Below, piece after piece: positions 20,901-52,047 of a stretch of 64,000 nucleotides of DNA. A model generated the notes under the pieces. That model had not been told where the DNA came from, made no database searches, and saw only the letters and a program-made list of their open reading frames with translations. A program made the position numbers and the translations under genes. The stretch comes from Lingula anatina (lineage: Eukaryota > Animalia > Brachiopoda). Location: positions 14,074,001-14,138,000 of the forward strand of contig CM120649.1 of assembly GCA_051362555.1 (NCBI GenBank), written 5' to 3'. Position 1 is the first letter of the stretch; every line of letters begins with the position of its first letter.

Positions 20901-23900
20901 CCTTCCACTACATCCTCCGCTCCTTCAACTGGATTTGTATTTGGAGGTTCTCAGAGTGTTCTGGGGGTGTCCACATCCACAACAAACAGCACACCTTCAC
21001 CTGGCTTTGTATTTGGAAGTGTTCAGAGCCTTCCTTCTGCATCCACATCCACAACCACCATCACCACCAGCACATCTTCAACAGGATTTGTGTTCGGCCA
21101 GCCTCAAGGAAGCACAGGGAGTACATTTGGTATCTCTACGTTCAGTTGGAGTGGAATCCAGCCTTTCACACCCACCAAGGCAGATAAAGGGAAATCCCCT
21201 GTGAAATCCCCCGTGAAAGCGGGTGCCCCGCTGTCCCCTGGCTCACCAGGGGCAGACAGTGACTATTATAATGAGGAAGAAGATGAGCATGAACATTATT
21301 TCGAGCCTGTGATTCCCCTGCCAGATAAGATTGATGTAAAGACTGGAGAGGAGGAGGAAGATGTACTGTTCTGTCAAAGGGCAAAGTTATTTAGGTAAGG
21401 AAAAGTTATTGGTCATATTTTAAAACTGAAAATATGATTGTAACTTTTCTTGAAAGTGCTTAAGGAATAGATTGTTAAGATTTATCTAAGTTATAAGTTT
21501 TTTGTTTTTACATCTGTTTGTAATTAAAGGTCTGTTTTTGTGTGCAAGTTTTGATTGACCAATTGACTAGACATAATTATCTTTTTTTATTGGTAAATTA
21601 AATGCAATACTTTTTGATCAAAAGTTTTTTTTAATGTATGATTTTTCTGTTGTTTTTACATATAATGCTTATAAAAGAATGATTACATTTATACCATGAA
21701 AAGAATGTGCAAACTTAAGAGCATCATAATAAACATCCCTTTTCCATATTGCTGTTCTCTAGGTTCACTGACAACGAGTGGAAGGAGAGAGGTTTGGGAG
21801 ACATGAAGGTTTTGAGGCACAAAGAATCCAAGGCTGTTAGACTCCTCATGAGACGAGAGCAGGTATATATTTATATATTTATTTATTTGTTTGTTTGTTT
21901 GTTTGTTTGTTTATCTGTTTCTTTTTAGTCAGCATTTAATCATCATTTTTTCCAATGTTTACATTTAATTGTTAATATTTAGTAGTTGAGATCTGTAAAA
22001 AAAATAATGTCATGTTAACTCTTTTTTAACATTTTGATTTCATCACAGTTGTTTATACCAATTTCTCCTTTTGATGAAAAGATCCATATTATAATTAATT
22101 CAATAATTTGTTAACTCTGTATGGTATTTGCAGGTGCTCAAATTGTGCTGCAATCACTACATCACACCTGAATTGGACCTTAAACCCATGCCCAGCGCAC
22201 ATGGGAAAGCCTGGATATGGCACGCAATGGATTTCTCTGAAGATTCAGGGAAACATGAGAAGTTGGCCATAAAGTTCAGATCTAAAGAGATCGCTGATGA
22301 ATTCAAGCAGGTCTTTGAAGATGCTAGGGACAAGAAAGACATTCCAGCCTTGCCAGAGTTCTCTGATGGAAATAAATCAGGAACAGGCACTCCTAATCGA
22401 TCCCCGTCCAAATCACAGCAGAGTAGTAGTTTTGTTTTCAAAACGCCCGACCTGGCAACCAGTCCAGGCTTCTCACTGGGTGCCAAGTTTGGATCACCAC
22501 AGGGAACGGGAAGTGGGTCTGTGTTTGGTGGAGGTGTGTCACAGGCAACGGGAAAGAGTCCACTGGCTGGCCTGAGTAGCCATAGTCCATTTGGAGGGAA
22601 AACGAGAGAGGAAGAAGGTAAGGAATTCTTTTATTAACTTCGATGGTGAAGTTCTCTGATAGAAAAGGACATGTTTAAGAACAGTCTGCCAAAAACCATC
22701 AAAGTGCAAGAAAAGGTGACGTATATTTACTCTGTGCCAAAAAAACTTCTTGGCATTCTGTCCCTTTTGGGCAGCATCATCCTAAAATCCACTGGCCCAA
22801 TACAGAAATAGTGACTGTTTTTGCTAGCATTTGGCCTGGAAGCTGTGATTACTTCACATATTAGTTCCTCATTACATAAAATCGGAAGAAATTGATATCA
22901 TTATAATGTCTGTTTCTCAGATGAAGAGGTAGAATTTCTTGGCGAGGAATTACCCAGTAAGGAGAAGATTGAAATGGCCAGGCGCTTCTTGTTACCTGAC
23001 TGTTTCTACAACTATGAGAAGAAACCTCCGTGTCCTGGTTGTATAGGCTGTGAGGATTGGGAAGAAAAGAAGAAACTGATCCCCAAAAGTCCTGCAAAAG
23101 CACAAGGCAAGTAGAAACACAAATCTTTCCATGACTTTGCGACTTTTTAGCCATCCTTCTTTTTCTGAGCGAAAAAAGGGCTTAGAGAGTTGCTGGCCTT
23201 TGTATAAAGTGATAAAAAATGGTAATAATGATAATAATAATAATAAAAAAGAAGACCTATGGAGGAGGGGTTGGTTTTCTTTTTTTTATCCCACTCTGGC
23301 CTCTTCATATTGATATATGTTGTGATTGTTTTGCAGGTGAAGGCTCGCTGCCTCAGTCAGGGAAAGAGAAGGCTGTGGTAGCAGCAGCAGGTAAGTGCTT
23401 TGGTATTTTGAAGCATAACATCAATAGCAAAATTTGAAAACAGAAGTCTTTTTCTTTTTCATTAGTATTATAGAGTTGATGAAATTGATAAGCACATTGT
23501 CTAACTTTAAACCTTGCTTAACTCTTAGGAGTTATGATAGGTATACTTCTCAGAAAATATAGTTTTTATCTCTGTTTTTGTTCATTTTATCATATTTTTT
23601 TCAAACTCCGACATTTTCTCCTCAGATTCCACCAGTGAAGGTGCGGGTATGGGTATCTTTGGCCAGTCGGCCTCTGGTGGGTTTGATTTTGCTGCTTTAG
23701 CGGCCCAGGCAGGAAAGACCGGTGGAGCGTTTGGGAAAACCACAGGTAGTGGATTTTTTTATTTTAATTTTTTATTAATTTATTTTATTTATTTATTTTA
23801 TTTATTTATTTATGCAATAGAAAGAAAAGGAAATTATAATAAGTGAAGTATAGATATACTACTAAGCACCGTTTGACATTTTTGTAAGGCTCAGTGTTTT

Positions 23901-24217
23901 CTCTTATTATAATAAGTTTTCATTTACTGGTTTATCTTATTTGAGACTGTATTTACATTTTGAGTGGTTGTTTACATTGTTGTCACTGAATGCTTCAGAG
24001 TCGTCCAAATCATTCACCTGGGGTGGCACAGCAACGCCATTGTTCCAGACTAAAAAAGCAGACAATGACGGAGAGGGCGATGATGATGATGTGGAAAAGG
24101 CGCCAGATGTCCACTTTGAACCTGTGGTAGAACTGCCTGACCTGGTGGATGTCAAGACTGGTAGGTATCACTTACTGAATTCCCTCCTCTTTTTGACGGA
24201 AGAACACTTCTCCTCTC

Positions 24218-24264
<47 letters not shown>

Positions 24265-27200
24265 TACACACACACACACCTTTGGGTGGATAAGACAACA
24301 TTAGAAATAGTAGAAATCATCTAAATTTCATGTTTAAAATACAAGTCTTAATATGCAAAGACAGAGAAAGTACAATCAAAAATATATGTTAGAGCAGCAA
24401 TACAATACATCTAAATCCAATACAAATGAGTTAGCTTCCACAGACCAAACAAATACAATCAGTGTTAGAAATTAAGGCTGGACCGTCTGCCCAGGGCTGA
24501 CAACTTTCAGAACGGGCTGAGAAGTTATCCCACCCGGCAGACTTTCGAGCCAGCTACTTCTCAAGATGGCTGAACTTTCGGTCCAGCAACTAATTTTCCT
24601 AAGAGGCAAAAACTGAATACAATACTAAGTATTACGCTTTGTGAATATAATAACCAGATGAATTGTGTTATATTATCAGGGGAGGAGGATGAGGAGGTGG
24701 TGTTCTCTCACCGTGCCAAGCTGTACAGGTTTGACAGTAACCAGTGGAAGGAGAGAGGAGTGGGGGAGATGAAGCTACTCTGGCACAGGGAAACAGGTGG
24801 GTTAGGATTCAGTTTATTGTGCTGAACTAATGAAAAACAAGTGCCTCTTCATTAATAGATGATTAGATGTATGAGATGTGCAGCTACTCAGAGAAGTCAA
24901 AGGTTGATATAAAAACCTTGCATAACATTTTTAGTCCAATTTAGAGAGATCTTTCTTTTTCTCTCACATCCAGGCAAGGTGAGAGCCCTGCTGCGTAGAG
25001 AGCAGGTGCTCAAATTAGCATGCAATCATTACATAACTCAGGAAATGGAGCTGAAGCCCATGATGTCCTCAGAGACAGCCTGGTGCTGGCTGGCTGTGGA
25101 TTTCGCTGGGAATGAAGCCAAACATGAGCAGTTTGCTGTGAAATTCAAGGTAAGATTCCCCCATTCCTCATGCCATGCATTACAGTGTGACACTGAATTT
25201 AAAATTCAAGTAGTGTTCTCCCAATCAGAGCTCATCTGGAGGCATGATATGAACTAATATTTGGAGTAAATTTTTCTGTTTTATGTCTTACAGTGCACCA
25301 TAAACCTGAAAATTGTAGAAGGATGGAAGGTAGCTAAAGATAATCCAATGTGTTTTAGTAAACTGGTTTCTGAAAATGTTTTGGATCATTTTATTGTATT
25401 TCTCTCATAAGTGAAAGCTCAACCTTATTGGTTACAATTGAAATTAAATAATGATAATAAGTATTATTATTATTACTATTAGTATTAACTTCTTTCAATT
25501 TAGACTCAAGAAATAGCCAAACAGTTCAAGGCGAAGTTTGAAGAATGTCAGAGGCTGCTGAGTGAACCCAGAGGTAACTTAAGAAAACTATATTAACTCT
25601 GATATATAATTTCTTTTCTTTTTAATCATCTGCTGCATGATTAGAAATCTCCAAACCAACCTGCATGCTCTTTGATATTCTTGGCTTTAGCTTGGTCTCT
25701 TGCATTAACTTTACAGTTTGGCAATTTGATTATTTGCTATTTTAATTGATTTCTATTACTTCTGTGTCCACATTTTGTCCTTGGAAGGCACAGAGATGTG
25801 AAAATGGAATCAAAATTACAAAATTGGGGTTTATAAATTCAGATGAACTAGTTAGTTTCTAACATGAGTATTCTGCACGGTTTACTATTTTTTGTCCATG
25901 GAATATTTTGTGATTTAAAACATTCAATGATTTGAATCATTAGAAGTTTTAATCAGCATGGCATTTCTAGCTTAGAGTCACAGCATGAATTGTAATGGTG
26001 GAAGGTTTTGAAAATAGAATACATATGTCCACAGTAAGTGCTGTACTAAATGGCTGACATGAAAATTGTTTTGATAAGGAATAATATTACCAAATGCAAG
26101 GTTTGAAATAAAGCTTTTTTGGCTGATATTTGTTATATTTCTTGAGTTCAATTTTTTCTGACACTATCGCAATTAAGATACAGTGATTGTTCTAGACCGT
26201 AAAAAGATAAATCAGGCTTGTCGGTAGAAAGGATATAATCAGCAAATTCTCAAATGAGAGGTGGCTTGTTTACCCTAATATATTAATTGGAGATTTGAGA
26301 GTGGTGATCATAATGCATGCTGCACTTGCCATGGCTCAGTTAATGCACTGTGATTAGTTCTTACTATGATTATAACAGTAAGCTAGATTATATGAGATCC
26401 AACAGAATGAGTTAAAAGAATACCAGGAAATATTTTGCTTGAACAGTGATTATTTAATTAAAAATTGATAGCTGTTGTGATATGGAAAATGTATTCATCA
26501 GAGCTAATAAAGTTTTCAGCCACTAGCTAGCACCCTGCATTTCATTAAATATTAAATGAAAACTCAGGTCTATGACCAACTGTTTGCTGGTCAGGAAGAG
26601 TTACTTTCAATACTATGAAACTTGGGGTACAAGCTTGCAGTTTTTCCAAATGCAGTATTGACGAATAAAAAAAAAAAAAAAAAAAAAAAAAATGTTCCAT
26701 TATGTGTTGGAAAAGCCCATTTAAAGAATTATCCAAGTATGCTGTACATTTGGGATAGTTTGTGGCAGTTTTGCAGCAGAAAAATGGGTCTCCTGCCATT
26801 TCTTCATGCCCCTCCATGCATTTTTGACTGCAAAGAACTTGGGCACTAGTTATAACAAATAAGGGCACATTTGTAAAATGCATGGGTCAGTTAAAATATA
26901 TAGAGTCCAAAACCTTGTTTGATTCATAAGTGGGTGGAATAATTTCCTGCATTTCCTACAGCAACAGAGACGTGACAAGGTTAACAATGAGGTTGACATT
27001 TATCATGGCATTTGCCCATTGCCAAATACCTGCCAAATTTGTCATAGTCAGGTAAACCCCTGCTAAAACTTAGTATTAGTACTGTGTTGTCATATGTGGA
27101 TAAGTCCATCAGATGTACTCAAACCTTGTTTTATATTTAAAAAAGTATGTATTTTAAGACTGTATGATATATTTTAGATATAATAATAACTTTTCAAGGA

Positions 27201-30200
27201 ATTTTTTGCATTTGGGAAATTTTAAGTCGAGAGTGGAATAAAGCAATGATTCTGTATCGTGACTATATTATATATCCTTAGTTTAAGAGTAGGAGTAAGG
27301 GAAAAGGCATAATTTTCCTGTTAGCAGGGTTAGGATGTCAATGCTAGCAGTAGCATTACGACCTTGTGCCTGTCACAATTCCTAAATAAATCTAAATGAC
27401 TGCTATTACAAATAACAGCAAATTTTAGCTTCCTGTAAATCTTAATTTGCTGTGAAATATGACTGGCAAACGACAAACACAATTTTTAAAATCTAAAATA
27501 TCTAAATTAAAGTTTCTTCATAATTTCTTCCTTCTTGCACAGGTAGATATACTTGATAACAAGCCAGTCATATTTGACCCTTTGCGTGACGTGAAGCTAC
27601 CTGCATGTACAGTGTTATTAACAGGTCGTTTTCAGCCATAAATTGTATGAAATGAAATCATTATGATAAATCTTACATGCATGCTCCGCTTACAGGTCCA
27701 CCCTCCTTGTGCTTGAAGAGTAGGATTTTTTTTTCTGTCACAAAAAGCACTGCAAAGTGGTGTTTTTGGGTCAAACAGAGAGTCCCATAGAAAAGAAGCC
27801 TATTTCTGATAGATTTGGAAGGCATTTTAATTAGAACAGGGTTGCTTCTCATCTAAAGGGACCTTATCACTTGGAAAGCTGTATGCAGGTTGAAGGCAAA
27901 CATTGGTGATTGAGTCACAAGATTAATGGACGTCTAGACACTGTTTGTTTTTTAGTTGTTGCACAGGTGATTTTAACCTTTGCTGCTGAGGACAGTTATA
28001 ATTTATTCGTGACAAGGTTGCTAGGCCTTGGATGCTGACCAAGATGTTTGCCAGGGAAGTTTACTGAAGCACATTTTTTTTCAGTTACATGTCTCTCTAG
28101 TCAAAATCATAGTAACGACAGTGGATTGCAGCATATTTGCAGACACTTCCTGACTTCGTTCTGCTATATCTGACATAGTATCCTAAGATTTGAAACAGCC
28201 ATCTTCTATTGTTTGATGGTGACGTGTGGATTTAAGTTATATCTTTAATGTAAATTATTGATATGATTTAATACTGTCAGACAATGGGAAACATATTGGG
28301 ATATCTTTACCAGTATGTGGGTAAGTGAGTTCATAAATTGCTTGGAGACTGATCTTGTTAATAATCATGGTAGTTTGCTTTGTGCGCATTTGTTATCAGT
28401 TGTAGTATTGTGGACGTAAGACCCCCTCTGCATCGAGTGGTATACTTTAGTGATATGGTCTGTTGCACTGAAATGTCCGAATCTATATATTACACTACAG
28501 GTTTTATTTCTCGCTTTCACAAATTTGCTTTCTAAATTTTGGGTGGAAGTTTATGGATTGGCTGTGTCTAGTGCAGGTGATCCATTAAGTTGACATTTTT
28601 ACTTTTGGTGATAGCCAGACCACCAACTTGTCAGTCACTCAAATTGTACCAGTTCAGACAGTGTAACTAAAGCATATCACTCAACATGAAAAGGACATTT
28701 GTTGAATACCTGTGACTTGCAATGTATGTATTTGCTATCAGAAGTGGAAGTGTGGATATAAGTAGGATAGCCTGACCCCTCCGTAGCTTGAAGAAAGGGG
28801 ATTCCTCAGCCTCTTATCCCATTTTTTCCATTCTGATAATTAACAAGGTAGGCCTACTAAGTATAGCCAGCACTTTCAAAAGGAAAAGATAACAATGTTG
28901 TCACGCGTCCTACATGTTTGTTTTAAATGGCATAGAACATAGATCAAATTTTAATTTAGAGTGGACCTTTTCCCAGTCAAAATAGAGGTTTGTTCGAACC
29001 CCTTGAATACCATGTCTTTGGACCTTCAGGGGTCAGCTTCAGCAAAGTACTTTAGACTTCTAGACTTCAATTTAGAATAAATGACTATTAGTATGACTAT
29101 TAGTCTAAAACAGAAGCTGTAATTTCTTTTCTTTCTTGCTAGAAAACAGGCACACTATTATATTTAATTGGACAACTTCATATTTATCTTGGGCTCAATT
29201 CCCATAGGCACCACTGGTCTACATAGATGGATCCAGCTCTGCAGGGACTCTCACTGAGTGCAGTCAGCCAGTCAAAGTAAACTAGAATTCAGATTACAGA
29301 GTTTGAACTATCTTTTGGTCGGAAGGTTCTTTGTTAAACAGGCCTCTGGTCTAAATCAATATGTTTCGCTTCTTGTTATCTGATTCAAACCAATCAAGTT
29401 GTGGTTTATAGCGTCAGGCTATTATCACAGTCCAGTTTAGTTGTTTTAGGTGGAAAAAAAGAGGGTCAACTAAAGTTGACCAAGATTTATTTATAGGCTT
29501 GTATATAAATTATTTAAAGTGAGGTATTAACTTTAAATTTATTGCTACGTACACCTATGTGAAGCATGGGTCGGTGTGAGCCTTATTTTAATAAGAGGAA
29601 AAAAGACATCTCCCCACAAAATATTTATCTGTTTTAACAGGACAGGGGCTCTCATAGCATGGGCCACCACAATGTTGTAACATACATATGCAGCAGCAGA
29701 GAAGGATAGATGTTTATCTAATGGGTTTTCCACTGTATGGACACACAGATGTAGGCGTAGCAGTTAAATAACAGCCTACACTGGGCGCGGAGGACTTGGG
29801 GATGATTTTATACATTGAGGGTATTGCTTACGGCTGAATAGAAGTTCAGGGAAGAAATAATGGCTCACTGTGCACAGATATGTGTGTCTATTTGTTGATT
29901 TATTGCACTGTGACACTACATTTGGACACAAATTGTGTACAGGCAAGTGTGAAGAGACAATGTGGCAAGCTCTCGGGGGTGATCGAGTTTATATAGAGCA
30001 TACTTCCTGTGACATGATTTCAGTGAGGATTTAGAGGTCCTGCTGACAGGTAATAGTACTGTAGGCATCTGTTGACAGTCAGTGACCAATTTTTCCACTG
30101 CTTGGTTGCACAGGTTTAAGTATGACATTGCCATATAATGGGACATTAAGCTGACGTTTTTATGTAGAACAAACTGTCTGTGATTCTACATATATGAGGG

Positions 30201-33200
30201 CAAGGAGCATGCATGTTCATTCACTTTAAACAGGATGATGTTACAGTGACTGCAGTATGGTTTAATGATATGGTCTTGTCAACTGCTGCCTGGATACACA
30301 GCTATGTCAAGGTGTGGTAATAACACAAGAAGGAAAAGTTGACCTGGAGGCGTCTGTGGAGTGATACACTATAACACAGGTGTAAATATCACAGTTGACA
30401 AACTTCAAGCTAGGGCAATTTTTTTTTGGAGGTAACTGGAGCCTCCTTTATGTTCCACAGGGAGACACACATGCCCTTTATTTTGATGGGATAATATTGA
30501 TGTAAGAAAAAGGGAAAGCACCTGCAAGGAAGTGATCACAAGGACGTGTAATGCACACATAGGACACGCCCACTGGGATATTTGTAGATGTTATTTTAAA
30601 TCAATGTTTCCCTGATAAAGGATAATGGATTTTCTGGAATGGTCGTACTCCACTAGATGATATAATACTGCCTGTTTAGTAATAAGAAGGAAGGGGAACA
30701 ACATGGTGACGGTGATCCATACAACGATGCACTTCTTGGGGCTGCTGAGGGACTCGTTTAATGCCTTCTGGTATTACCTAGGTGAGGTATCAGAAAAAGA
30801 AGTGTTTATTATGTAGAAACATGTTATAATCCCATTATTGTGGTGAAGTAGGTTTTTCATTGTTGTGTAGCGATGAGAGCTAGCTCATGTCAATAAGATG
30901 AGGTATTTCATTGTCAGTTGAATTTGTAGTGATCATGGTATATAAAAAGTCTGTATGTCACCAAGTCAGTTATAATCAAAGCCTTTGAGGCAGGGTTAAA
31001 AGATCATTTCTCACACTAAGTTGGAAACAAATCTAGTCTCTTTATAATCTATTTACTTTGTTATCAATTCCCATTTTTATATTTTAATTTTTGTTTGACG
31101 TCCAGGTTGTCAAAATCTTAGTTACACTAGGCAAAAAGTCCTTATACTTAAGCTTATACCTCTGTTTACTAGGTCTTTTATTACCTGATTTAATATGATA
31201 TAGCATGAAGTGTAAAGATACAATATAAGGGTGGTGTCCTATAATAATACATTTGGTGCAGCAATGTAATGTAGGTCAGTTAACATGAATTATAAGAACA
31301 TTGTAGCTAAAATGTAGGTCAGGTATGTATAATTAAGGATCTATTATATAATATGGTCAGGTATGTAGTGTTTAGGATATATGAATAATATATTCTAGTC
31401 AGAATGTTTGGCCAGGTTTAAAGCCTCCACGTTACAATATCCCTATGTACTATAGATTGTGATCTTGTGCCCTAGTTCAAAATTTATGTAGTGTTGTTAT
31501 GAAAATGACAACTTAGTACAGATTGTCAGGTAAAATGTTAGTTAGGAAGCACTGGCAGGGGATCCATTTGAATTTCAAGGTCAGTTTTGACATTTGGAAA
31601 ATAGGAATGGATCCCTGGTGTTAAATTTAATGTGTGACCCTCCATGGCTAGGCAGGAGACATCTTCCCAAGTGGGTTTGAATGTGTGTGAGAGACATAAC
31701 ATGAGATTGTGTGCACGTGGTTGCATGCCTGTATGTGTTTTTGCATGTGTACGGGCTGTGTCTGTGTTCAAATATTGTATGAGCCTTCTTAGTTCTTTTA
31801 TTGCTTATATATTTGGGCATACTCTTAAAAAGTGATATGTGGTTTTATCTGAATGGTTAGTTTTTCTGGTTTTTTTTTTCTTCTTTTTTTCTTGTGAAAA
31901 AAACATTAAAACCTGAACAAAAAAATATTCCAATGGAGAGAAACAAAAATTCAATATTTTTCATATTTATTTTCCCTTCCCATGAAATAATAATAAAAAA
32001 TAGAATCGTAAAGTTCAACACATTCCCATTTCCTATATGCATCCCTTTTGTGTGATTTACAGATAATTATGTGCCGTAAAAGAAAAGTGCCCACTTTTCA
32101 TTATGTAGCAAAGCCATTAAACTTCATGGTTGTTCACCAGAAAAGGCAAATGTTAACTTTTTAAAGAATAAAAGGAAAATTTTATACTTGTGAGGCACTG
32201 TGATAGCCATTAGTGTGAGACATGGAGTCTGAAATATCATAAAACAAAATACTCACTCTCTCTTTATTTTATTTTTTAGCTTTAGTCACAAAGTGAATCA
32301 GTGGGAAAGGCAAGCATAGTATAATATCATCATACAAAAAATTCTATGGTAACAGAGAATGACAGCTTTTAGTTTTATTCATTAAAAAAAAAAATCAGTG
32401 CTTCTGTTTTAAGCTTCAAGCAACATACTCTGGATATCTTATATTTGAGTGAAAATTAAAAATTTGAAAAATTAAAAATAAGAAGTATGTTTTAAAATAA
32501 ATATATAAGCATTTTTGACTGAAATTTAAATGTTTGCAAAAGTTAAGAATGAGAAATTTGATTTAAGAATATCAGTAATATACTAAGTAAAAGTTAAATG
32601 TTTGAAAAAAAAAAGTTAATTAAAAGTATGTTTTAAAAGTATCAAAAAAAAATAAGCACATTTTAAGTGCTGGGATGTGTATGTGGGCATGTATGTACGT
32701 TTGTTTTCTTGTCCATCTGTGCAGCTTCAAAGAAATACAGGTCTGTAAAAGATTCAAAAAGATGGACACAGCTTTAGATGTTTCCTGTTATGTAATGATA
32801 TTAATGACCAGTCAAATAAGTTTACACTAACACCCATGGACTTTGTAGAAACAGACATCACTATTTCATTTTTCAGAAAAAGATCAGGATATTTTCCTTA
32901 CTTGACTTCCTAGGAATAATTTCTGTTCCAAACCAATTTTAGAATTTCAGTAATGAATTTTATTTTATTTATTTTATTTTATTTGTTTGTTTTTTAAAGT
33001 GTCTTTTTATGGTTGTGATAAATGTAGGTCAAAAGCACATTAAGGAAACCATGTCAGAATGGACACGGGTCTTGTTAGGGGACATAATTAATGAGGTGTC
33101 CAATTCAACAAGGCGAAAAAGCACTGCCCAACACATTTAAAAAGGGTTTAGTTAGATTTAACAAGGGCAACAGTTGACCATGGTACTGGAAAGTAGGTAT

Positions 33201-36200
33201 TGTGCATGAAGCTGTCTTTTTTCCTTTTTTTTTTTTTTTTTTTTTTAGCATGGAAAATTAGATTTTATTATTTTATTGTAGCATTACAGTGCTTGGATCT
33301 ACTTTTGCTTGAAACTGCAAACCTAATTTTGTTTTTTCTCTAGGCCTTGGTTGGTTGAAAAAAGAATGAGAAGCATTGGCTTTTGTACTCTTGTAGTATA
33401 CTTGGATGCAATTATTGTGGGGGAAAGATATACTTAAAATATGTCACGGTAGGTAGGGGGAAAATGTATATATAACAATAGGCATTTTTTAAAGTGTGTA
33501 ATTCCTTTGTAGCTCCAACACAGGAGAGCTCCACTGGGAAACAAGACACGCCTGTCCCAGAGTCCCCAATAGTTGCCACCACAGCAACTCCCCTGGGAGA
33601 CAAGGGAAACCCTTACTATACAAGAGAACTAGACACAGAAGCTAAAGAGGGAAGTATAGCACCTCGGGTGGCAAGGGAATGTGGCGGAGATCGTGGAAAC
33701 TGGCTTTACACGCGCGAGTTGGATACAGAGGAAGAAGAGGGGGTGATAAAACCCCAAAATGCCTCAGAATGTGGCCCCAGGGAGGTAGAAGAGAATTTAG
33801 AGCCAGAAAAGGCCAGCATGACTGGGGGTGACTTAGGGAATTGGCGATATACAAAAGAGCTCAATGTATCCGCACAAGAAGAAGTGATCAAACCGTCTTC
33901 TGGGTGGGGGACAGGAGGGGGCGAAACTGACTTGATTGAGCCCAAGACAGCCTCAACCACAGGCGGTGCAGGTAACACACTTTACAGCCAAGAGCTAAAT
34001 ACATATGCACAAGAAGAAGTGATTAAACCCTCATCTGGGTGGGGGACAGGAGGGGGCGACACTGATTTGATAGAGCCCAAGACAGCCTCAACCACAGGTG
34101 GTGCAGGTAACACACTTTACAGCCAAGAACTAGATATCACTGAACTGGAAAGTAATATCATACCCACAAGAGGGGTATTAACAGGTGTTGGAGACAGAGG
34201 AGGGGTATTTTTAGGGGGCAGGGGTAGTCCCATGTACTCCCACACTTCTGGAGTCGTTGACGAGGTGATAACAGCCAAACTGGACTTCGCCACCGAGGAA
34301 GATGTGGACAGCGACTCTGCACCTGCGATCCAGGAAGACATCATCTCTTCAACCCAAGGTTCTGTCACTGGAGGGGGCCTTGGTAACACAAAATACACTA
34401 TGGAGCTTAACGCAGCGGCAGCCGAGGGTGTCATCTCACCTGCAACGGCTTGGCAAACTGGTGGAGGTGACACCTATCCCAGGGTTCCAGTGGAGGAAGT
34501 AGTGGAACCGTCGTCAACCACTGGCACTGGGGGAGGAGATGGGAATGCGCTTTACTCTCGAGAGCTTGATGTGGAGGAGGCTATCACACCTGGTCATGCC
34601 TCAATCACAGGGGATAGGGGGAATCCTGAGTATTCTAGAGAGCTGGGAGAAGGTAAGGTGTTAAGGTGTTCTGCAAAATGGTGTATTGAAGGTTAGCAAG
34701 ACAACTTATATGATTATGTAGTATAGATGTGATCTTATTAGTTTGCTTTTGTTATGCAGGCAATTGAGAATTTAAAAAAAGATAACTACTAAAAAGATAA
34801 CTACAGTTGAAATAAAAATCCATGTTTGGTATCCTAAAGTTGTTTATTTTGCATATATGCTGAGTAAGTTAAAAATTTCTAGAGTAAGTAGAAATGTTTT
34901 TTGTTTTTTTTCTTAAAAAAGGGATATTTAAGATAATAAATGAACCAAAACAAAAAGCCAAACTGTAAAGTGAGGAAGCCTACATGAAAAAATACCACTC
35001 CCTTTTTCTTTGCAAAGTTTGGAATTTTCTAACCATGCATTGTAAAACCAGATATTGTGAAAAACATTTAGTAATTTTATTTTAATATTGTTGATTATTG
35101 TCAGTTATGTAGCTATTAAGGTTATTGTCTGAGAGAAGAAATTTAAGTAATTGATTTTAATATTGTTTGAGTAAACAACATGTTACTTCAATATTTCCTG
35201 CCATCCATAACACTCTTTATGTGATGATTTCTGAAGAAATTAAAGAATATTTTTCTGCAGATGTTGATGAGAAGAATGAAGAAGAGGAAGAAGAAGATGA
35301 TGATGAAGATGATGAACAGGTTCTCTTTGAGAAGAGAGGAACTCTTTCTTACAAGGAGGGAGATAAGTGGAAGGTAGGGAATTTTCTCCCTTTCAGTAGA
35401 GCAGTTTGGAATTTGTAAACGATATCTCTGAAGAAATTAAATTAAATGTAACTATTTATCAATATAAATGTAATGGAACGAACCTTGAGTTACATCTCCA
35501 ACATGACTAGATTTGTAGATAGTTTAGTGGTTGCAAATTGATTCTGTCACATTTTCAAACTAAATGCCACTTTGTAGCATTAAAATGGAAGCTAGGTAGA
35601 TAGTACCTCATTTATTTGAAAGTAAATTCTTGCACAGAAATTGTGTTAAATGTGGTGTTTAATATTAGACTGTTGGCATGGGCAACTTCAAAGTGATATA
35701 TGATGACGACGTGAACGGCTCTCGCATCTACATGTGCTCTGATGATGACCAGATGTTATGCAGCCACCTTATTCTGCAGGAGATGAGCATAGAATGGTGA
35801 GTGGTTTCACTTTCATTTTCTGGTTTCACTTTCATTACTTGACAATTTTTTTGTAGTTCATGTTTACAGTATATTCATGAAGGAAATGTTGTTTCAGTGC
35901 TATGTTAAGATGATTCAGATTTTTGTGCCTGTGTTTCGAAATATGGGACTTTTTAAATATTTTTGCTGTATGATATAAAATTTTTTTATTTCAGTAATGA
36001 AAAACTAAAGACCTGCACCTGGGATGCCCATGACTTTGCCACAGATGAAGCTGTGAGGAAGAATTTCAGAATTCAGTTCAGCTCTGCCCAGGCTGTGAAG
36101 GAGTTTAAGGACGTGTTCAATCAGGTGAGGTGCATTATGGGTGCAAAATTATTGCCCTAAGAGTTTGTTTATCTTTAACTGGAATATCTTTTCCCCCTCA

Positions 36201-36978
36201 GTGTGTGAGTACTAGTAGTTTAAGGATGTGTTCAATCAGGTGAGGTGCATTATGGGTGCAGAATTATTGCCCTAAGAGTTTGTTTATCTTTAACTGGAAT
36301 ATCTTTTTCCCCTCTGTGTGTGAGTACTAGTAGTTGGTGCCTGTTTCCATTGTTGAATTTTTTGTCTTTATTTTATTTTCCTCCAGGGTTTAGATCTTGC
36401 CAGAGAGAGCGAGCTCTCAGAGAAGGACATCATCACAGTGCCCTCAGAGATTATGACACCAGAGGTCGCTGGTATTGGAGCGACACCTGGTGAGGAGAAT
36501 GATGTGCCTTTCTACCAGCAGGGGGCGACACTGAAGGACCTAGTGCAAGGTGGGCCCATGTTAGACTAAAGTTTTTATTTATTATTTTTGTTGTTATTTA
36601 TATATTTTTTTAATATATTTATTTTAGCGTAAAGAAAAATCAAAGTATCATAAGCCTGAACCAGTGTTTTTGTTATTTATGAATATTTTGTCAGAAGTTA
36701 ATGTCTGATTATTATGAGCAACCAGTGTAATGGACCATTCACAATGAATTTTGTCAACCTAATGTGCCCCAATATCAGCTAGACTGACAAGATTCATTGT
36801 GAGTAGTCCCTTACATATTTTGATGATGGCATCCAATATTTAAGAAATATTGTCCAAGAATATGATATTTTTATCTTTATGTTGTCATTTCTTTAAAAAA
36901 AATTTTGAAGTTGTTCTTAATTGTTTCCTCATCCTTTTTGCAGGTGCTCTAGATACAAAAGAAGAAAAAGAGGGATAA
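1737..36978 (+). CDS. RANBP2: E3 SUMO-protein ligase RanBP2 / nucleoporin Nup358 (multi-exon)
   Basis: Exon 1 1737-1814 ([12 protein letters not shown]...), exon 2 2520-2587 ([15 protein letters not shown]), exon 3 (YCALYL...[10 protein letters not shown]...AVACYK), then QKDLVLK and [10 protein letters not shown] follow the human RanBP2 TPR N-terminus. Coiled coil at about 15660-16170. Four RanBDs with WKERG, three W-x-C-x2-C-x3-N-x6-C-x2-C fingers, FG repeats and an IR module. Last exon 36944-36978 ends [11 protein letters not shown]. Not every small internal exon was resolved. Confidence 0.95.
4509..4675. mobile_element. MITE in a RanBP2 intron
   Basis: Terminal inverted repeats CTGGGACAGCGCTAGCA and TGTTAGCGCTACCCCAG; AAAAT on both flanks (possible TSD); no ORF. 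Confidence 0.65.
5632..5710. repeat. (CA)n microsatellite
   Basis: Direct reading of the sequence. Confidence 0.95.
6911..9041. mobile_element. 2.1 kb non-autonomous TIR DNA transposon in a RanBP2 intron
   Basis: 21-bp TIRs with one mismatch: CTGTCATTCTTTGCTAGTGGT (6911-6931) and ACCACTAGCAAAGAATGACTG (9021-9041). ATAA on both flanks (4-bp TSD). CpG-richer interior with no transposase ORF. Confidence 0.8.
11983..12120. repeat. Compound (GT)n/(GA)n microsatellite
   Basis: Direct reading of the sequence. Confidence 0.95.
12381..12694 (+). mobile_element. Helentron-associated non-autonomous element (HINE/DINE-like)
   Basis: 5' TTACCGATGCCAAGG..GTTATGTTTTC and subterminal inverted CCTTGGCGGAGGT. 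GTCT/GTTT microsatellite near the 5' end, internal GGTGATC..GATCACC palindrome, short 3' hairpin ending TTTTAGTT. This is the typical HINE layout. Confidence 0.75.
14905..14940. repeat. (GAAA)n microsatellite
   Basis: Direct reading of the sequence. Confidence 0.9.
17240..21394 (+). CDS. RANBP2: RanBP2 giant exon (4155 nt): RBD1, ZnF1, FG repeats, RBD2, ZnF2-3, FG repeats, start of RBD3
   Basis: Inside ORF 17154..21398, bounded by TTTTATAG| and AG|GTAAGG. Contains [18 protein letters not shown] RanBD motifs, GFKFG/GFVFG repeats and WECxxCxxxN fingers. Confidence 0.95.
22921..23106 (+). CDS. RANBP2: RanBP2 IR (SUMO E3 ligase) module exon followed by a GC-AG intron
   Basis: [46 protein letters not shown] resembles RanBP2 IR1 (VLIVYELTP...KLKLPPTFFCY). 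The only phase-compatible donor is AAG|GCAAGT at 23107. Confidence 0.8.
24210..24280. repeat. (CT)n(CA)n microsatellite
   Basis: Direct reading of the sequence. Confidence 0.9.
24460..24602. mobile_element. Small MITE-like inverted-repeat element
   Basis: AATTAAGGCTGGACCG ... CGGTCCAGCAACTAATT inverted repeat around a GC-richer core in an AT-rich intron. Confidence 0.45.
25995..27624 (+). CDS. Candidate three-exon alternative 5' module of RanBP2 (25995-26033, 26962-27051, 27543-27624)
   Basis: ATG in good context, donor ACA|GTAAGT (phase 0). 90-nt exon TTTCCTACAG|...CAG|GTAAAC, open, phase 0-0. 82-nt exon CTTCTTGCACAG|...ACAG|GT, phase 0-1. Joined peptide: [70 protein letters not shown]. 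Confidence 0.55.
28284..28320 (+). CDS. Candidate alternative first coding exon with an N-myristoylation-type peptide [12 protein letters not shown]
   Basis: ACAATGG Kozak context, 12 codons plus 1 nt, then consensus donor G|GTAAGT. Phase 1 matches the acceptors at 33513 and 35261. Confidence 0.6.
30703..30781 (+). CDS. Candidate alternative first coding exon with amphipathic peptide [26 protein letters not shown]
   Basis: AACATGG Kozak context, 26 codons plus 1 nt, donor TAG|GTGAGG (phase 1). TATA-like ATATAATA about 40 nt upstream. Confidence 0.6.
33513..34652 (+). CDS. Symmetric (phase 1-1) 380-codon exon encoding an unrecognised acidic Gly/Thr-rich repeat domain
   Basis: Within ORF 33494..34696, bounded by TTCCTTTGTAG| and GAAG|GTAAGG. 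Eight GNxxY[ST]xEL units and about 12 [IL]xPxxxxx[TC]G units, with a 135-nt internal tandem duplication starting at 33872 and 34007. Confidence 0.85.
35261..36124 (+). CDS. RANBP2: Degenerate fifth Ran-binding (PH-fold) domain; exons 35261-35373, 35669-35796, 35995-36124
   Basis: [65 protein letters not shown] keeps the RanBD pattern but lacks WKERG and RREQ. Confidence 0.8.
36102..36331. repeat. 115-nt tandem duplication spanning an exon end and its donor site
   Basis: AGTTTAAGGA(C/T)GTGTTCAATCAG|GTGAGGTGCATTATGGG... starts at 36102 and again at 36217; the copies are near-identical. Confidence 0.9.
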
Positions 36979-37171
36979 AAAGATTCAATTTAAACACAGA
37001 ATGATAAATATTCACTTGTTAACAACAGCTGTTACAGGAACCCTATCGCCTGTCTACGTTTCAAGCACAGTGCTGTTTACATGCATATTATCTGACAAAA
37101 CTTTATGGAATTCAACAGGCAATTTTGACTTGGATACAAACTCAGTTTTTATCAGTATCACAATTATGGAC

Positions 37172-37758
37172 AATAAAATTCATTAGGACGTTGTGAGGAG
37201 AAGAAATGATTTGAGAGAGCTAGAGGAAGTGCCTTGTGATTATTGAAGTGAACTGGATACTGAATTTCACTGTGTTTTGGAGAGAGATAATTATTTTGGT
37301 TGTTTTATACACTGAGCATGTCTATCCCATCCCCACCCTCTCTTAATTAGCACGTGGTAAACTTTTTGGACTGTTCTCCTGTTTCACTTGTGTAAAATAA
37401 GAATTTAAAAGTGAAGGTGAAAGAAACCATCAGAGAGAGGGATAAACAGGATGAAAGGATGGGATAGTATCGTCATCATTTGAAGTTAAATTTATTCACT
37501 AAAGTTGATATTACTATAAGAAAAATGATAAGTACTGTATTATGCGTACTCGTGTTTAACTATTGTAAATCAAGCTATTTCTGATTAGTTAATATGTTAT
37601 TCTGTTAATCACAATAGAAATACCACAATATATTACACAATAAAAATGCCACAATATATTAGGTTTGTAGACTATAAATATGTATATACATATAATTATA
37701 AAAAATCCTGTATCCATAATATATATTATTATCTTCACTCAGATGTTCCTGTAATAAA
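37172..37758 (+). terminator. Candidate RanBP2 polyadenylation signals
   Basis: AATAAA at about 37172, 37639 and 37753, downstream of the stop at 36978. Confidence 0.45.
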
Positions 37759-39040
37759 ATTTGCTCTGAATTTTCTTCAGAGAACGGCACCAGTCAGTGG
37801 TGGGTGCCTCTAAAAGGACTTAGGATTTTTGAACCAAAAAGAGAATTTCTTTGGAAGATTGACTTTTTTTTAATATAAAAGTCTGTCAAATTTAGCGTAA
37901 GAAAGTATGAAATTTTTTTAAAGATCTTTCGACTATACGTTTTCTAATATGGTCAGTTTTTTGTAGGAGAAATTGTCATTTTTAGTGAAAGAAAAAAAAA
38001 ACGATCTCATTATGAGTTGTGAACAGTAAAAAGTTACAGAAGCAGCTGATGATTTAGTTGTTCCCGTTCCCTTTTATGTTATTTTAAACAAACAAGTCAT
38101 CTCTGTGATGTAGGAATTCACCAATCGTAATCTGATGACAAAATATTAAATACCTTCCTTTTTCCCAAGCCGAACCTCATTTTTTGTAATGTTGAAGAAG
38201 GGATCTGCAGATCTGATCATGGTTCGATTTTCAATTAGTCTGGAAGGGAAACGGACACTACAATAATTTTCAAAAAGAGCCAGTGCGTGATGTAATATGT
38301 TTCTGATATCTTGCAGCTAAGGCATTCTTATACACGTTTCAAAAGTTATATGATCACAAATAACTGTCTCCTCAGTGGAAGTGGATTATCATTTTGTATT
38401 TGCAAGCATTGTCAATAAAGGGAATTATATTGAAGGCTTACTAGTTTTGTAGTTCCTTGATGACGATACTTCACCCTCTTCAGATGAAATGACAACAAAA
38501 CTTCGTTTGAACTGAAATTTCTTGAAAATAACTAAATTTTATAGTCGAAGCGGTGATGTTTTCTCTATGTATACAGAAGGGATCTGTGAAATGCCGACCT
38601 TTTATATTTGTACGCTCTGAAATAGTAAATAAATTTTAAATACAATTTTGTAACAGACTACCAGCGCACCCAGTGGTCAGAGAGTAGTATTGATGACCGC
38701 AGACGCTGACCGGTGCTCAATTTAGCGGGAAGCTACTTGTGTGCCGTAGACACCGATCGGCGTTCTCAGGCTCAATGCAAGGCGAAGAGAGACCGTAACA
38801 CCCAGTTAAATGTTAAAGTTCAATGTTTATAAATGTATATATATTTAGACTTTTTATTGCTGACCGAGAGATAAAGTCATTTTGGCATGTGGGTTTTATT
38901 TGAGTTGAGTGAAACTATTGCTTGTTATATCTCCTTTATGTGAATCTTTAATGCCCTGCAAAATGTTTCGATGCACTTAAAACTGTCCATAAATGTCTCT
39001 GTATTTTACAAGTGCACGAGCCGCTGTCCCTAGAAAAATA

Positions 39041-39483: not shown

Positions 39484-39680
39484 AGGAACACCACTTACGG
39501 ATGTCATTGCCATTTCAATTGGAACTGGAATAAGGCGGAACGTTGTATTAGCTCGAGTAGACGTATTTGTTGAAGACGACATATTACTGTAATTAAGCAT
39601 AAGAACCTCAGTGGTCGAGTTAATTATTTCATTTTGGGCTTTAAATGAGACATCGTCAGTTAACCCTTTAATTCAAAAAG

Positions 39681-40163
39681 ATGGCTGTAGTCAGGATGGT
39701 GGATGTCGTCCTCTTTCTCTTTTTCGTCTGGACGTGGGCCACTGTTAACAGTCAAATGGAGCAGGGCGTGGAGTTAGGAAGATGTCGAACTCGTTGTTTA
39801 GAGGTAAGAAGAGAAATAACATTTTCGTCTGTTACGTGAGTTTATCATTAGTTTTTTTTTTAAGTATTAGATACGTTAGTATAATTCGATAAGTAGGGGT
39901 GCATTTAGGTAAGCGGGTAAGTTAAAAATAATGAGTAAATGAATTAGTTAAATATGTCTTTGCGATGAAAGGGTCATCGGGTCAAATAGGTCTTACCCAC
40001 ACCAGTGCGCGTTTAAATTACTTTATAAGCTTTCTCCCGTAACAGTAAAAAATTACAGAGGTCGGTTGATAAATTTAAGGTTGTCGCTTTCGAAAAGCGG
40101 CTATTTTGACCAGCACCCGTTGTAACTATAGTGGTCGAACCATCTTAAACGGCTCTTAAGTGA

Positions 40164-40208
<45 letters not shown>

Positions 40209-43200
40209 CGCCAAACACATGGAATCGTTATTTAAGAAGCGTTCGGGTTCTATTTGAAATAAACATTCTTTCAAGCATTTTAAAGCTTTCATCCTACATA
40301 TGGTTTCATTCTAGTTTCTCAAGTTGAAAGTGAACGATGAAGAATGTATGAAAGATGGGAACTGTAAAATGGTAAGTATGAATTCAAGGAGTTTTCTACA
40401 CTGATTTAATTCACACAGTTTTGCGTCCAAAAATACATCTTAAGGGAAGCTTAGTGTAGGGATCCCCAAAGAGTAGCTCTGACTTTCAAGGTGCCTCGAA
40501 TCAGTTAAACGGCGATAATATCGAAGCATAGGCTGTGTACATTTTAGTCGTCACAATTACCCTGACGTCCAGGGTGCGGCTGTCGTGTAAACAGTGTGTA
40601 TAGTCTGACCACGGGTATCTTGATTATCAGGGTACTAGTGTCGACAGCGGATCCAGAAATATTTTCTGTCAGTATTCCAAATTATCTTACTTGAACCAAC
40701 CTCCATTTTGGATGGTCTTTCAACAGAAAAAATAGATACCTGTCAATGTAAAATTTAAAATCTAACCTTCTTCCGGAAGACCCAGAAGACGGTCTCTATC
40801 CGCCCCTGACTGTAGTTAGAACAGAAAGTCACCGTGTTTAATTGTTCTCATTTCAGTGCTGGGAGACATGTGAATATCTGCAGTGGGAACCTCACACCTG
40901 GGACTACATGTGCAATGCACCCCATATATGTGTAAGTACCGACGTGGTTTTTAGTAACTGGAAATCCGAAAATTTTGACGCTTTAAAAATGTTACTGCTA
41001 GCAGTAACGATGCCATTCCTCATTGAATACCAAATGGAAATATAATTTTTTTCGGAATTTTCCGATACATACACGTAAAGTGAAAACCTAATTAACCAAA
41101 GACCACAGGTATGCAGTATATTGTTTTATTAGGTCTATGGACTTATTTTAAGATTTTTATTTCCAGTTTCCGGGCTGTAAGAGTTCCTGTGCATTCTGGG
41201 AAAATCACTCAACAGGTAAATTTTACTCAATTTCAAATTAATTATTTTTTGGAATGATTCTTCTTTTTGTTCACTGCCTCTAATCATGTTTGTCAGCATT
41301 AGCGGGGGGGGGGGGGTAAACTTTTAAGTGTGGTCGTTAAGAGTAATAAAAGTAACAAATTTTCTCCACTTGATAATGCGCCTTAATTGATTAAGTACGA
41401 CATTCTTCACACTTCTCGTAGAATCCATATTGTGCAGTTTCTGGCGCTTTTAAAACTCAAGATTTTTCTTCCTTCTGTATTTTAGCAAAAGCTGTGACTG
41501 CCCACCACGAGCTTGTAAAACCTGTACAAGTCACCTATAATAAAGGAACTCTGCGTTTGGAATGGATGCCACCGAATTTGGGACAAACCTCTGGCCATGT
41601 CATCTATATCCTAAATAGCCGAGATGCAGGTCACAACTTTGAGGATTGGTATACAGATATTCAGGTAAGTGGGAATGCACCTCAATAAGGAAAACATAAA
41701 AAAAAACAGGATTATATATTAGTATAGTATTTACTGAGAAGGCTGCACGTTTAGAATTTACATAGTTTAAACCGGACAAAGACAAACTGACGAAAATGTT
41801 CCAAAAAGTGACTGACCGTCTTATATATTTCAAAATGTTGGTTTATTGACCTTGTTATTTTAGTAATTTTGGTGCTTCATAAAGGATACTTGGTGAATAC
41901 ATGCAATAATACTGTTAATAATACATTTTTCTATATTTTATTTCAGACTGCAGACACGTGGGTAGAGTACGAGATGAATTTGTTTCCATATTTCAAGTTC
42001 CAGTTCCAGCTCTTGGTTGTCAATGAAAATGGAATCGTGGCTATTTCAGAAACGAGGATACTTGATATCAGCCAGTTAAATGGTAAGTACTTGTCCAGTG
42101 GAAAGATCACAGTATTACTTTAAAACTCATTATGATGCATATTGTGAATGACTTTAACTTTTTTCATGGGAGTTTCTTAGGCTTGCAAACTAGTTGAATA
42201 CGGAAACTGTTATTAGCCTTTATTATACCAAACGTCATTTTATCTTATGAAATTTAACGGACTAAGCAGTATTTCACTTAATCTAAATACTGACGTTAAG
42301 CTAAATTCAACATCAATGCTACCAAATGATGTCTCTATATAGAAATTTGTGAAAAACACTTAAATTATATCTGCAGCACTTCCAAGTCTACCCAATGTAC
42401 AGGATGTTCCTTCAAGTACCGCATTTACCTCCGCTGACCCTCAACCTACCACGTCAGCACCAACCGGACCTCCAAGTACCACATCAGCACCATCAAGCTC
42501 TCCAAGTACTACAACCAAGCAAACCGACCTCCCAAGTACCACGTCAGCGCCAACTGGTCACCCAAGCACCACAGCACCAACAACTGGCCAGCCAAGTACC
42601 ACGACGGCACCATCTGCCACTCCACGTGTCCCTGCAGCACTTGTTGATCCAATGAACATCTCCGTGACAGCAGGGCGAAACGGCAGCACCATCTATGTTT
42701 TTGTCCACTGGCAGCAGACGTCTGCAGAACCCACTGACTACAGTATCTTCTGGGGCCTGGAGAGCTGCAATGGCTGCACTGCTTCTACGTCTGACTACTA
42801 TGTCACACATGTTACTGATGTCATGGAAGAGGTAAGTTGTACTGTGTAATTTCCATAAAATGGTCAGTTTTTCTTCTCGATACTAAGGTTCTCTTGGAAA
42901 AAATCTATTTACTCAATTATCTGATCTAAAACATATCTTAAAAGATGTGATAGAAACTAGGAGTAGAAATGTATAGGCCTATAAAAGTTGGCCCCACAAT
43001 ATTTGGATATAATATGTTTTGATTGATTGATTAACCTTGACGAACTATGCCTATTGTAAAGCAATAATTCACATTTTAAGCAATACATTTTTTTCTCCAG
43101 CACACTGAGGTCAGGCTGATAGCAGAATGGACATTTAACTCGAAATACTGGTTACAAATTGAACGCAGATCAACCGGATCGTTTTCCCCAAGGATTTCCT

Positions 43201-46200: not shown

Positions 46201-47307
46201 CAGTGTTATGATTTTTTTTTCAAAAATAGTTATGGCAAATGAACAAAGAAAATCAAACTTAAATACGGACATCTGTATGGTTAATAAAATGTACTTCATT
46301 CTACCGCAGGTGCAACCCCGTACCCAGATATTGCTGTAACAGAGCTAGCCACCAAACTGGATCAGGGCACTAGACTCAAGAACCCCAAGAACTGCTCCAC
46401 GGAACTGTAAGTACCACTTCTATTCTACACCCTTCTTTTATCAGCAAGGAATTTTAAAGTAACTAAATTATTAAGGGTCGCAGGGCTTTTTGAACGATCC
46501 TTATCTAATAAGAAATTATACCTTAACGAGATTTTAACGCGGCCGGTACATCCTTGTTGAATTCCTGTAAAAACTCAACAGACCTCATTTTAACCATTTA
46601 GTGCTTTCGTGAGATACTGATGAGATCCCAAAGTAATGTAAAATTGAAGGGCAAAATTGTATATGTACGCCATTGCGTCAAAATTTATCTGCATATTTTT
46701 GGCATTTATTCATTCATAACCATTTACTGTTCAACCTCATTCTAAATACTGCATTCTTACATTCAGGTATATTCTGATGCTGCAGTGCTGGCACAAACTC
46801 CCCGAGAAGAGACCCAGTTTTACCAGCATCCGGCTTGAATTGGAAGACATGATGAGTCAAAACTGCGACTTCTTAGAACTTGAAAACCTCGTGGAGCCGA
46901 TATCAAAGGAAGAAAGAAGCGGCCCAGTCCATGTCAGCACGTTAGAAAAGACGGAAGTGTTGAAAACAAGGGAGGATGAAGAGACTGAGGAGGTGGACGA
47001 AAGAGAGGAGGAGGATTACGTCCAAGAGCCACCCTTTACTAAAAAGAGAAGCTTAAAGAAAACCCTCTCCCAGTTATCAAACATACTGGATTCGACTAAA
47101 CTGTCCAAGAAGATGAGTGTGAATAGACGTAAATCCGCTGGGTCTAGTGTCAGCTCCAGTAGACTGTCCATGAAAGGCAGTATCCGCCGGAAGTCAGAAA
47201 AACACCAACGTTCTCTGGAGAACCTGATTGTGGATGAAATACTTGAAAGTGGAAGCGAGAGCTGCAGTGAAATACAGCTGGATGTGCTGAATGAAGAGGT
47301 CTTTTGA
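39681..47307 (+). CDS. Receptor tyrosine kinase (torso/FGFR-like kinase class) with anosmin-like Cys-rich N-domain, FN3-like domains, mucin stalk and TM; probable pseudokinase
   Basis: Signal peptide [24 protein letters not shown]. Cys box [32 protein letters not shown]3-like LRLEWMPP and [30 protein letters not shown]. Kinase motifs [57 protein letters not shown]. Stop at 47307. Confidence 0.9.
40164..40204. repeat. (ATT)n microsatellite
   Basis: Direct reading of the sequence. Confidence 0.9.
40650..40809 (+). mobile_element. Short dispersed repeat (MITE-like), copy 1
   Basis: GCGGATCCAG...TATCCGCCCCTG ends. Core ATATTTTCTGTCAGTATTCCAAATTATCTT..TTGAACCAACCTCCATTTT is homologous to 49684-49790. 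Confidence 0.55.
42414..42620 (+). repeat. Coding 30-nt minisatellite encoding a ([10 protein letters not shown])-like mucin stalk of the RTK
   Basis: Repeated CCAAGTACCACRTCAGCACCA units, about 6-7 copies, in the exon starting at 42377. Confidence 0.8.

Positions 47308-52001: not shown

Positions 52002-52047
<46 letters not shown>

Follow-up and report, generated by a model that had tools for sequence, protein, structure and literature searches.

Nup358, or RanBP2, is usually treated as one giant filament of the nuclear pore, and a testis isoform related to RanBP2, BS-63, has reportedly been described. A likeness of another kind is offered by Arf-family GTPases, which carry myristoylated amphipathic N-terminal helices. 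Tissue-specific, intranuclear and mitochondrial variants, that is, forms away from the pore, are mentioned for vertebrate RanBP2/Nup358 in two papers (PMC3925691, PMC9067512), and a third describes alternative first exons that give N-terminal proteoforms with changed localisation (PMC13082882). Here we analyse the 3′ end of the RanBP2/Nup358 gene of the brachiopod Lingula anatina within a stretch of 64,000 nucleotides (assembly GCA_051362555.1, contig CM120649.1, positions 14,074,001 to 14,138,000 of the forward strand), hereafter the window, in whose numbering all coordinates are given. We find that the long intron after the fourth Ran-binding domain (RanBD; the domains of this gene are called RBD1 to RBD5) holds two exons, B and C, which are spliced onto the terminal part of the gene and likely begin at internal starts.

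The Lingula gene belongs to the same family as vertebrate RanBP2/Nup358 and resembles it in its probable off-pore variants, but its terminal part consists of a repeat exon followed by a degenerate fifth RanBD (RBD5) in place of a cyclophilin, and its short forms would start in the intron after RBD4 and include no canonical RanBD. As in the proteoforms generated by alternative first exons, exchangeable first exons of the same phase are set on a shared body; unlike those proteoforms, the Lingula short forms drop about four-fifths of a nucleoporin, and their targeting is predicted. No report of such a short-isoform arrangement of Nup358 was found in the literature searched, which took in main texts and few subscription journals, and neither that literature nor the protein collections yielded a short, separately started isoform built on the fifth RanBD.

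The evidence for exons B and C comes from RNA. Four of nine raw-read runs from the same species (X1, X4, X7 and X9) were mapped onto positions 24500-37900, and the counts of joints and read differences given here are those listed for that mapping; 93 further loose ends and 444 differences lie outside them. Exon B is joined to the repeat exon (28320>33513) by 10 reads with 7 starts in X7 and 9 reads with 8 starts in X9, and exon C (30781>33513) by 6 reads with 5 starts and 10 reads with 8 starts, respectively. The corresponding joint from RBD4 (25573>33513) is carried by 7, 3, 6 and 4 reads in X1, X4, X7 and X9. Reads entering the repeat exon therefore come from B or C in 35 of 45 cases in X7 and X9 together (B 19, C 16, RBD4 10), as against none of 10 in X1 and X4 (Fisher p 6e-6, calculated on reads, which are not independent samples), where RBD4 joints alone are seen, with or without the repeat exon. 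Read depth over the repeat exon is 23-38 versus 7-11 over RBD4 in X7 and X9, a ratio of about three, and 7-18 versus 7-15 in X1 and X4, and the joints within RBD5 and the tail are found in all four runs. Finally, 9 reads in X1 lead from 25573 to 35261 and 9 reads in X4 from 34652 to 35261, both as loose ends; because RBD4 can join 35261 directly, the repeat exon behaves as a cassette in full-length transcripts.

The preliminary description of this locus had placed at least three ATG-started modules in the intron (A, B and C, with a weaker D) and had named the joints by which their use could be recognised. Two of them, B and C, are borne out by exactly those joints, with 19 and 16 reads in X7 and X9, whereas module A (27624>33513) and module D have no listed joint in any of the four runs; the bins over A1, A2 and D are empty except for a depth of 1.3 in X1 near A2, and X7 and X9 have no depth in 25841-27628. 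The proposed transcripts, composed of a variable N-terminus, an optional repeat, an acidic tract, a non-canonical RanBD and a tail, are thus supported by junctions for B and C but not for A and D, and the repeat proves optional for the full-length form only: the anticipated joints from B or C straight to 35261 were not seen in the four runs, in which joints at the low-complexity start of that exon are poorly reported.

Several observations bear on where these transcripts begin. The flanks upstream of both coding parts are transcribed, with 10-11 reads at 28272 for B and 11-12 reads at 30446-30490 for C in X7. In exon B an in-frame stop at 28269 lies 12 nt before the ATG, with no phase-1 acceptor between the two, and in exon C an in-frame stop at 30658 lies in the covered flank. 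No listed joint leads from 25573 into either flank, where some 6-10 reads would be expected in each case (Poisson probabilities of two reads or fewer: 0.003, 0.006, 0.06 and 0.003), and among the joints listed from 24500-37900 none attaches an upstream exon to B or C. Internal starts are the simplest reading of the B and C reads; B and C likely begin at such starts within the intron, and it is quite probable, in our view, that the gene yields short transcripts of internal origin.

Taken on sequence alone, the modules do not stand out. Under a strict donor rule the intron holds two ATG-to-donor modules against a mean of 0.5 in Markov simulations, of which 33 of 300 reached two, and under a loose rule it holds five against 4.0 expected by chance (106 of 300 simulations). 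The ATG modules are therefore not significantly above chance, and the RNA evidence is decisive. The good Kozak context ascribed to the module ATGs is present in four of four, each ATG having a purine at -3 and being followed by G at +4. Phase-1 donors are confirmed for B, C, D and A2, as for RBD4, with phase-1 acceptors at 33513 and 35261, whereas the A1 donor is in phase 0; the spliced frames from the modules into 33513 and 35261 are open. The intron had been called several times longer than any other in the gene, and its length stands, with a margin of about threefold over the next longest (5′-half gaps of ~2.3-2.75 kb and 2.1 kb; remaining 3′-half introns below 610 nt). The statement that no obvious transposable element explains this length is roughly right, but RNA reads that originate elsewhere accumulate on two small fragments of dispersed repeats, at 28937-28976 and at 29238-29268, and likewise on a third at 24500-24630.

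Some short motifs are concentrated in the same intron. The string TTGCACAGGT, readable as an acceptor or a donor, occurs three times in the window, at 27535, 27959 and 30106, positions that all fall within this intron and upstream of A2, B and C, against 0.15 expected, a figure to be read in the light of the motif having been picked by eye and post hoc. Four of the eight window copies of CACAGGT also lie in the intron (30375 among the noted positions; again post hoc), and both motifs may be splice sites of exons in the 5′ untranslated region (UTR) or a common promoter motif. TGCATG, the RBFOX site, has 10 of its 25 plus-strand copies in the intron, which makes up 12% of the window (post hoc), an excess that could bear on control of the cassette.

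With the repeat exon included, the predicted products comprise 581 (B) and 595 (C) residues. As had been foreseen, they would lack the TPR anchor and the FG region, and they would lack the zinc fingers and RBD1-4 as well. Their N-terminal peptides are hydrophobic and rich in aromatic residues, in contrast to the acidic body. Peptide B has a glycine at position 2 and a permissive residue at position 6 and is matched, unlike peptide C, by a regular expression for the PROSITE PS00008 myristoylation pattern; a helical moment as high as that of B occurs in 5 of 2000 shuffles. In this succession of Gly2 and a short helix with a hydrophobic face, peptide B is similar to the N-terminus of Arf proteins, a resemblance in character only, and the Lingula product, unlike Arf, has no GTPase domain. 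In exon C, all three listed read differences in the coding part are synonymous, a small number.

We lean towards a model in which short Nup358 forms arise from intronic promoters and are anchored to membranes by N-terminal helices, that of B being myristoylated. Promoters within the intron, restricted by tissue or stage, would start transcripts at B and C, and the gene would make full-length Nup358 plus two short proteins devoid of the pore anchor. Peptide B would be myristoylated, and both peptides would form amphipathic helices that hold the membrane; the myristoylation pattern and the helix shape are what suggests that the B and C products may be addressed to different membranes. The acidic, disordered repeat would display a short motif for binding in some ten copies, RBD5 would bind a partner other than Ran-GTP, and the likely job of the short product would be that of a membrane-tethered multivalent adaptor, apart from nuclear transport. 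That the repeat motif might bind RBD5 itself is an idea only.

Several points weigh against internal starts or against the proposed products. Exons B and C are seen only in two runs of one study, in which tissue and lineage are confounded. The joints listed from 24500-37900 leave room for joining to something outside that stretch, and given the further loose ends beyond those listed B or C may do so. A weak phase-1 AG at 30679 would permit exon C to serve as an in-frame cassette, and exon B, whose coverage may begin at a sharp edge at 27967, has a matching acceptor-like site at 27966. Upstream ATGs within 400 nt of flank, 7 for B and 11 for C, could damp translation, and the helical moment of peptide C (best 18-mer) is unremarkable, being reached by 226 of 2000 shuffles. 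Comparison with other animals points the same way: neither protein collections nor cluster look-ups covering 30 proteins gave an annotated short isoform in other taxa that carries an N-terminus of its own, and in crustacean-like loci RBD4 and RBD5 mostly lie close together.

These comparisons have their own limits. The searches for short isoforms returned 1, 2 and 73 matches, the last mostly fragments of metagenomic open reading frames (ORFs), together with the best 150 of 499, and their blanks are weak, as the 73-match search missed the Lingula record P0040 (XP_023931708.1) though it fell within the search range, and in clusters the short members are masked by the long ones. Protein searches and cluster look-ups likewise found no peptides homologous to the N-termini of B and C outside Lingula, blanks that are weak in the same way. 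Two records that begin with MG, P0100 and P0179, were considered as short isoforms and not counted, being uncurated ORF calls. In the 15 metagenome loci compared, RBD4 and RBD5 are separated by less than 700 nt wherever both domains are present, with the exception of L013, and the long intron is therefore not a general protostome trait. The gap in the exceptional locus (L013:5446-7688) is ~2.2 kb, the longest among the metagenome loci fetched.

How these points are weighed depends on the alternative in question. If B and C were internal exons of non-productive RNA, as poison exons or through read-through from upstream, no short protein would be made, and the acceptor-like TTGCACAG/GT sites that precede B (27966) and C (30113), the fit of B coverage to an edge at 27967 and the many loose ends beyond those listed would all be in keeping. 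We nevertheless hold this to be quite improbable: the nearest upstream donor, 25573, has no listed joint to either flank, reads across the B and C junctions number 35 against 10 for the RBD4 junction in poly(A)-type runs, which is not what decay substrates would show, and the frame from each ATG is open to the normal stop. That B and C appear in the diverged runs X7 and X9 only would also be expected if they were used solely in a diverged Lingula lineage, or if the reads came from a second copy of the 3′ end, with the window copy unused, and a second Lingula record does carry the same RBD5-tail behind a different N-terminus. The reads of X7 and X9, which are mostly 90-99% like the window, differ from it at full frequency, however, in the RBD4 exons too, and these runs therefore represent a lineage diverged over the whole gene rather than a 3′ paralogue; with the ATG, frame and donors intact in the window as well, we consider this explanation very improbable indeed.

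A different question is whether the short proteins, if real, are simply soluble, with N-terminal peptides that just supply a start codon, so that the point of the arrangement would be tissue-specific expression of the repeat and RBD5. The helical moment of peptide C lies within the range of shuffles, the myristoylation pattern is a permissive one, and no homologous N-terminal peptides were found outside Lingula, all of which suits this alternative; what makes it unlikely, in our estimation, though to be taken seriously, is that both peptides are rich in hydrophobic and aromatic residues, unlike the acidic body, that B combines Gly2 with a moment rarely matched by shuffling, and that the listed changes in C are all synonymous, albeit few.

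The body shared by these products ends in RBD5, which retains the fold of a RanBD and lacks the Ran-contact motifs. Its predicted model has a PH-like RanBD fold (predicted local distance difference test score 90.8, from a 20-sequence alignment) and matches RanBP1 and Nup358 RanBDs in Foldseek (E 1e-9, template-modelling score about 0.74), Pfam PF00638 is found in the Lingula record with E 4e-11, and by profile and fold the nearest domains are those of RanBP1 and RanBP2. We defined an RBD5 set as the 30 domains scoring above 75 bits on an RBD5 profile in 63 proteins, with weaker RBD5 copies counted among the 237 canonical domains. WKERG is kept in 0 of 30 RBD5 domains versus 216 of 237 canonical ones, the FEPV extension in 0 of 30 versus 161 of 237, and the xRR motif in 2 of 30 versus 224 of 237, while mean net charge is -7.9 in the RBD5 family versus +3.1 in the canonical set. 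In Lingula itself, the net charge is -5 for RBD5 versus +4 for RBD1 and +6 for RBD2, charge serving here as a proxy for the surface. RBD5 thus lacks the features of a high-affinity RanBD, namely the HFEPVV extension, the EWKER motif and, by the net-charge proxy, a basic surface for Ran's acidic tail. The HFEPVV extension and the EWKER-type and xRR motifs are Ran contacts according to a published account, where the low-affinity RanBD of RanBP3 type is likewise one with the extension lost, EWKER changed and the surface less basic (PMC3045386). RBD5 goes further than the RanBP3-type domain, being more altered (WKERG absent throughout, net acidic) and standing at the end of Nup358.

The degenerate character noted in the preliminary description therefore holds with respect to the Ran-contact motifs, but it is not special to this locus, as full-length Nup358 proteins from across the protostomes terminate in RBD5. 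A quick tree built from 58 domains separates 13 RBD5 rows (brachiopod, molluscs, annelid, nemertean, chelicerates, beetle and a marine metagenome record) from the rest by a branch of support 100, and on this tree RBD5 is one ancient protostome clade. Lingula RBD5 shares with the other members its C-terminal position after an acidic tract, an arrangement found in Patella, Tubulanus, Mytilus, Tegillarca, Limulus, Agrilus and Caerostris; RBD5 closes 21 of 54 long relatives and a cyclophilin motif closes 3, with no protein ending in both. A CDD model, RanBD5_RanBP2_insect-like, describes an insect-like fifth RanBD, and the domain itself is therefore probably catalogued. Tandem copies of RBD5 occur in Limulus isoform X1 (P0153; two), an Owenia model (P0007; three) and a JGI record (P0041; two). 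In four records (P0008, P0013, P0020 and P0145, from Owenia, Mytilus and two others), RING/B-box N-termini are fused to C-terminal parts of RanBP2 that include RBD5, with Pfam confirmation for P0008 only; these are either real TRIM-RBD5 chimeras or gene-model fusions.

The repeat exon encodes a stretch of 379 residues that is acidic (net -39) and contains a motif of the type G-D-[KR]-G-N-x-x-[YH]-x-x-[EA]-L 7 times under a strict definition and up to 11 times under a loose one, with copies 29-53 residues apart when the loose ones are included. All nine listed read differences in this exon fall at third codon positions (7 synonymous, 2 Glu>Asp). It matched no Pfam family, and three repeat-only relatives gave no consistent family; Atlas clusters returned no usable repeat match, a result that shows neither absence nor novelty, and the query P0003 gave RanBD leads below 0.9. 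The motif recurs after a RanBD in records from Batillaria, Elysia, Plakobranchus, Candidula, Bulinus and Haliotis, and in gastropods it sits before RBD5 where the gene model is complete. It is also found loosely in the annelid Owenia and in up to ~20 copies in other contigs. The claim of a novel repeat domain can accordingly be kept in the sense that the repeat is undescribed in the libraries searched, but not in the sense of a Lingula-specific one, as it is common to gastropods and an annelid.

These results suggest a testable origin for Nup358 products away from the pore. In some samples, most transcripts containing the repeat exon come from the internal exons and would encode proteins with neither a pore anchor nor a working Ran site, and probes, antibodies and knockdowns directed at the 3′ part of an invertebrate Nup358 gene may act on a protein other than the one intended. 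The conserved protostome pseudo-RBD and the lophotrochozoan repeat motif have ligands that are apparently undescribed in the literature searched. As a tentative extension, possible though on the unlikely side, the 3′ end of lophotrochozoan Nup358 may amount to a nested second gene, in which a pseudo-RBD and a motif array, expressed from tissue-specific intronic promoters with exchangeable first exons for different membranes, would act as an adaptor unconnected with nuclear transport, and which would be present, unannotated, in repeat-bearing molluscs and annelids as well.

The features of the locus are collected in the table below. The gene has the N-terminal helical/TPR region, the several RanBDs and the RanBP zinc fingers of RanBP2/Nup358: exons map from 1740 onward in tblastn searches with named RanBP2 proteins as queries, three Ran_BP1 (PF00638) and three Zn_ribbon_RanBP (PF00641) domains are found by Pfam in its big exon, and the RBD4 exons were placed by sequence together with RNA reads. 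The resulting layout comprises four canonical RanBDs, an acidic tract, RBD5 and a short tail. No vertebrate-type C-terminal cyclophilin follows RBD5, the frame ending at 36978 and passing into the 3′ UTR.

Features of the RanBP2/Nup358 locus in the window (X1, X4, X7 and X9 are RNA runs; ranks are among candidate sites)
Feature	Coordinates	Strand	Evidence or remark
RanBP2/Nup358 gene, start codon to stop	1733-36978	+	named RanBP2 proteins by tblastn; Pfam domains
Last RBD4 exon	25504-25573	+	phase-1 donor; joins 33513 or 35261; joint in 4/4 runs
Intron of full-length gene holding internal exons	25574-33512	+	7939 nt
Module A1, proposed first exon, unsupported	25995-26033	+	phase-0 donor; depth 0 in 4/4 runs; donor rank 94/521 GT sites
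Module A2, proposed second exon, unsupported	27543-27624	+	no joint; acceptor rank 6/506, donor rank 44/521
Exon B 5′ flank, transcribed	27629-28283	+	start somewhere in 27629-28075; X7/X9 depth in bins 27629-28522
Exon B coding part, 12 residues	28284-28320	+	phase-1 donor, spliced to 33513; junction reads X7, X9
Exon C 5′ flank, transcribed	30311-30702	+	covered at least from 30446, thinner further up
Exon C coding part, 26 residues	30703-30781	+	phase-1 donor, spliced to 33513; junction reads X7, X9
Module D, unsupported	33180-33192	+	bin depth 0 in 4/4 runs, no joint; donor rank 25/521
Repeat cassette exon, 380 codons	33513-34652	+	sequence, RNA joints
Acidic tract and RBD5 start	35261-35373	+	sequence, RNA reads
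RBD5 exon 2	35669-35796	+	joints in 4/4 runs
RBD5 exon 3	35995-36124	+	joints in 4/4 runs
RBD5 helix end and tail exon	36387-36549	+	joints in 4/4 runs
Last coding exon	36944-36978	+	3′ UTR read coverage to at least 37900

Within the gene, a 115-nt tandem duplication at 36099-36328 takes in the last part of RBD5 exon 3 together with the donor, and the listed joints use copy 1; a probable GC-AG intron (23107-23336), upstream of the stretch mapped with reads, follows the IR1-like exon. The spliced final 171 residues are identical at 170 positions to P0040. In that record, which bears the name "nucleolin-like", the RBD5-tail of this gene follows an unrelated basic/acidic N-terminus, the two being connected via the acidic tract; it looks like a chimeric gene model on a second copy or haplotype. 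Rfam gave no matches within 24000-39000. The next gene, at 39670-47307, encodes a receptor tyrosine kinase whose activation-segment motif reads NFG in place of the usual DFG, possibly the mark of an impaired kinase. Farther downstream, a tandem duplication of ~8 kb within 49300-64000 carries two genes for subtilases (Peptidase_S8), whose exons lie at 52288-53100 and 60254-61051.

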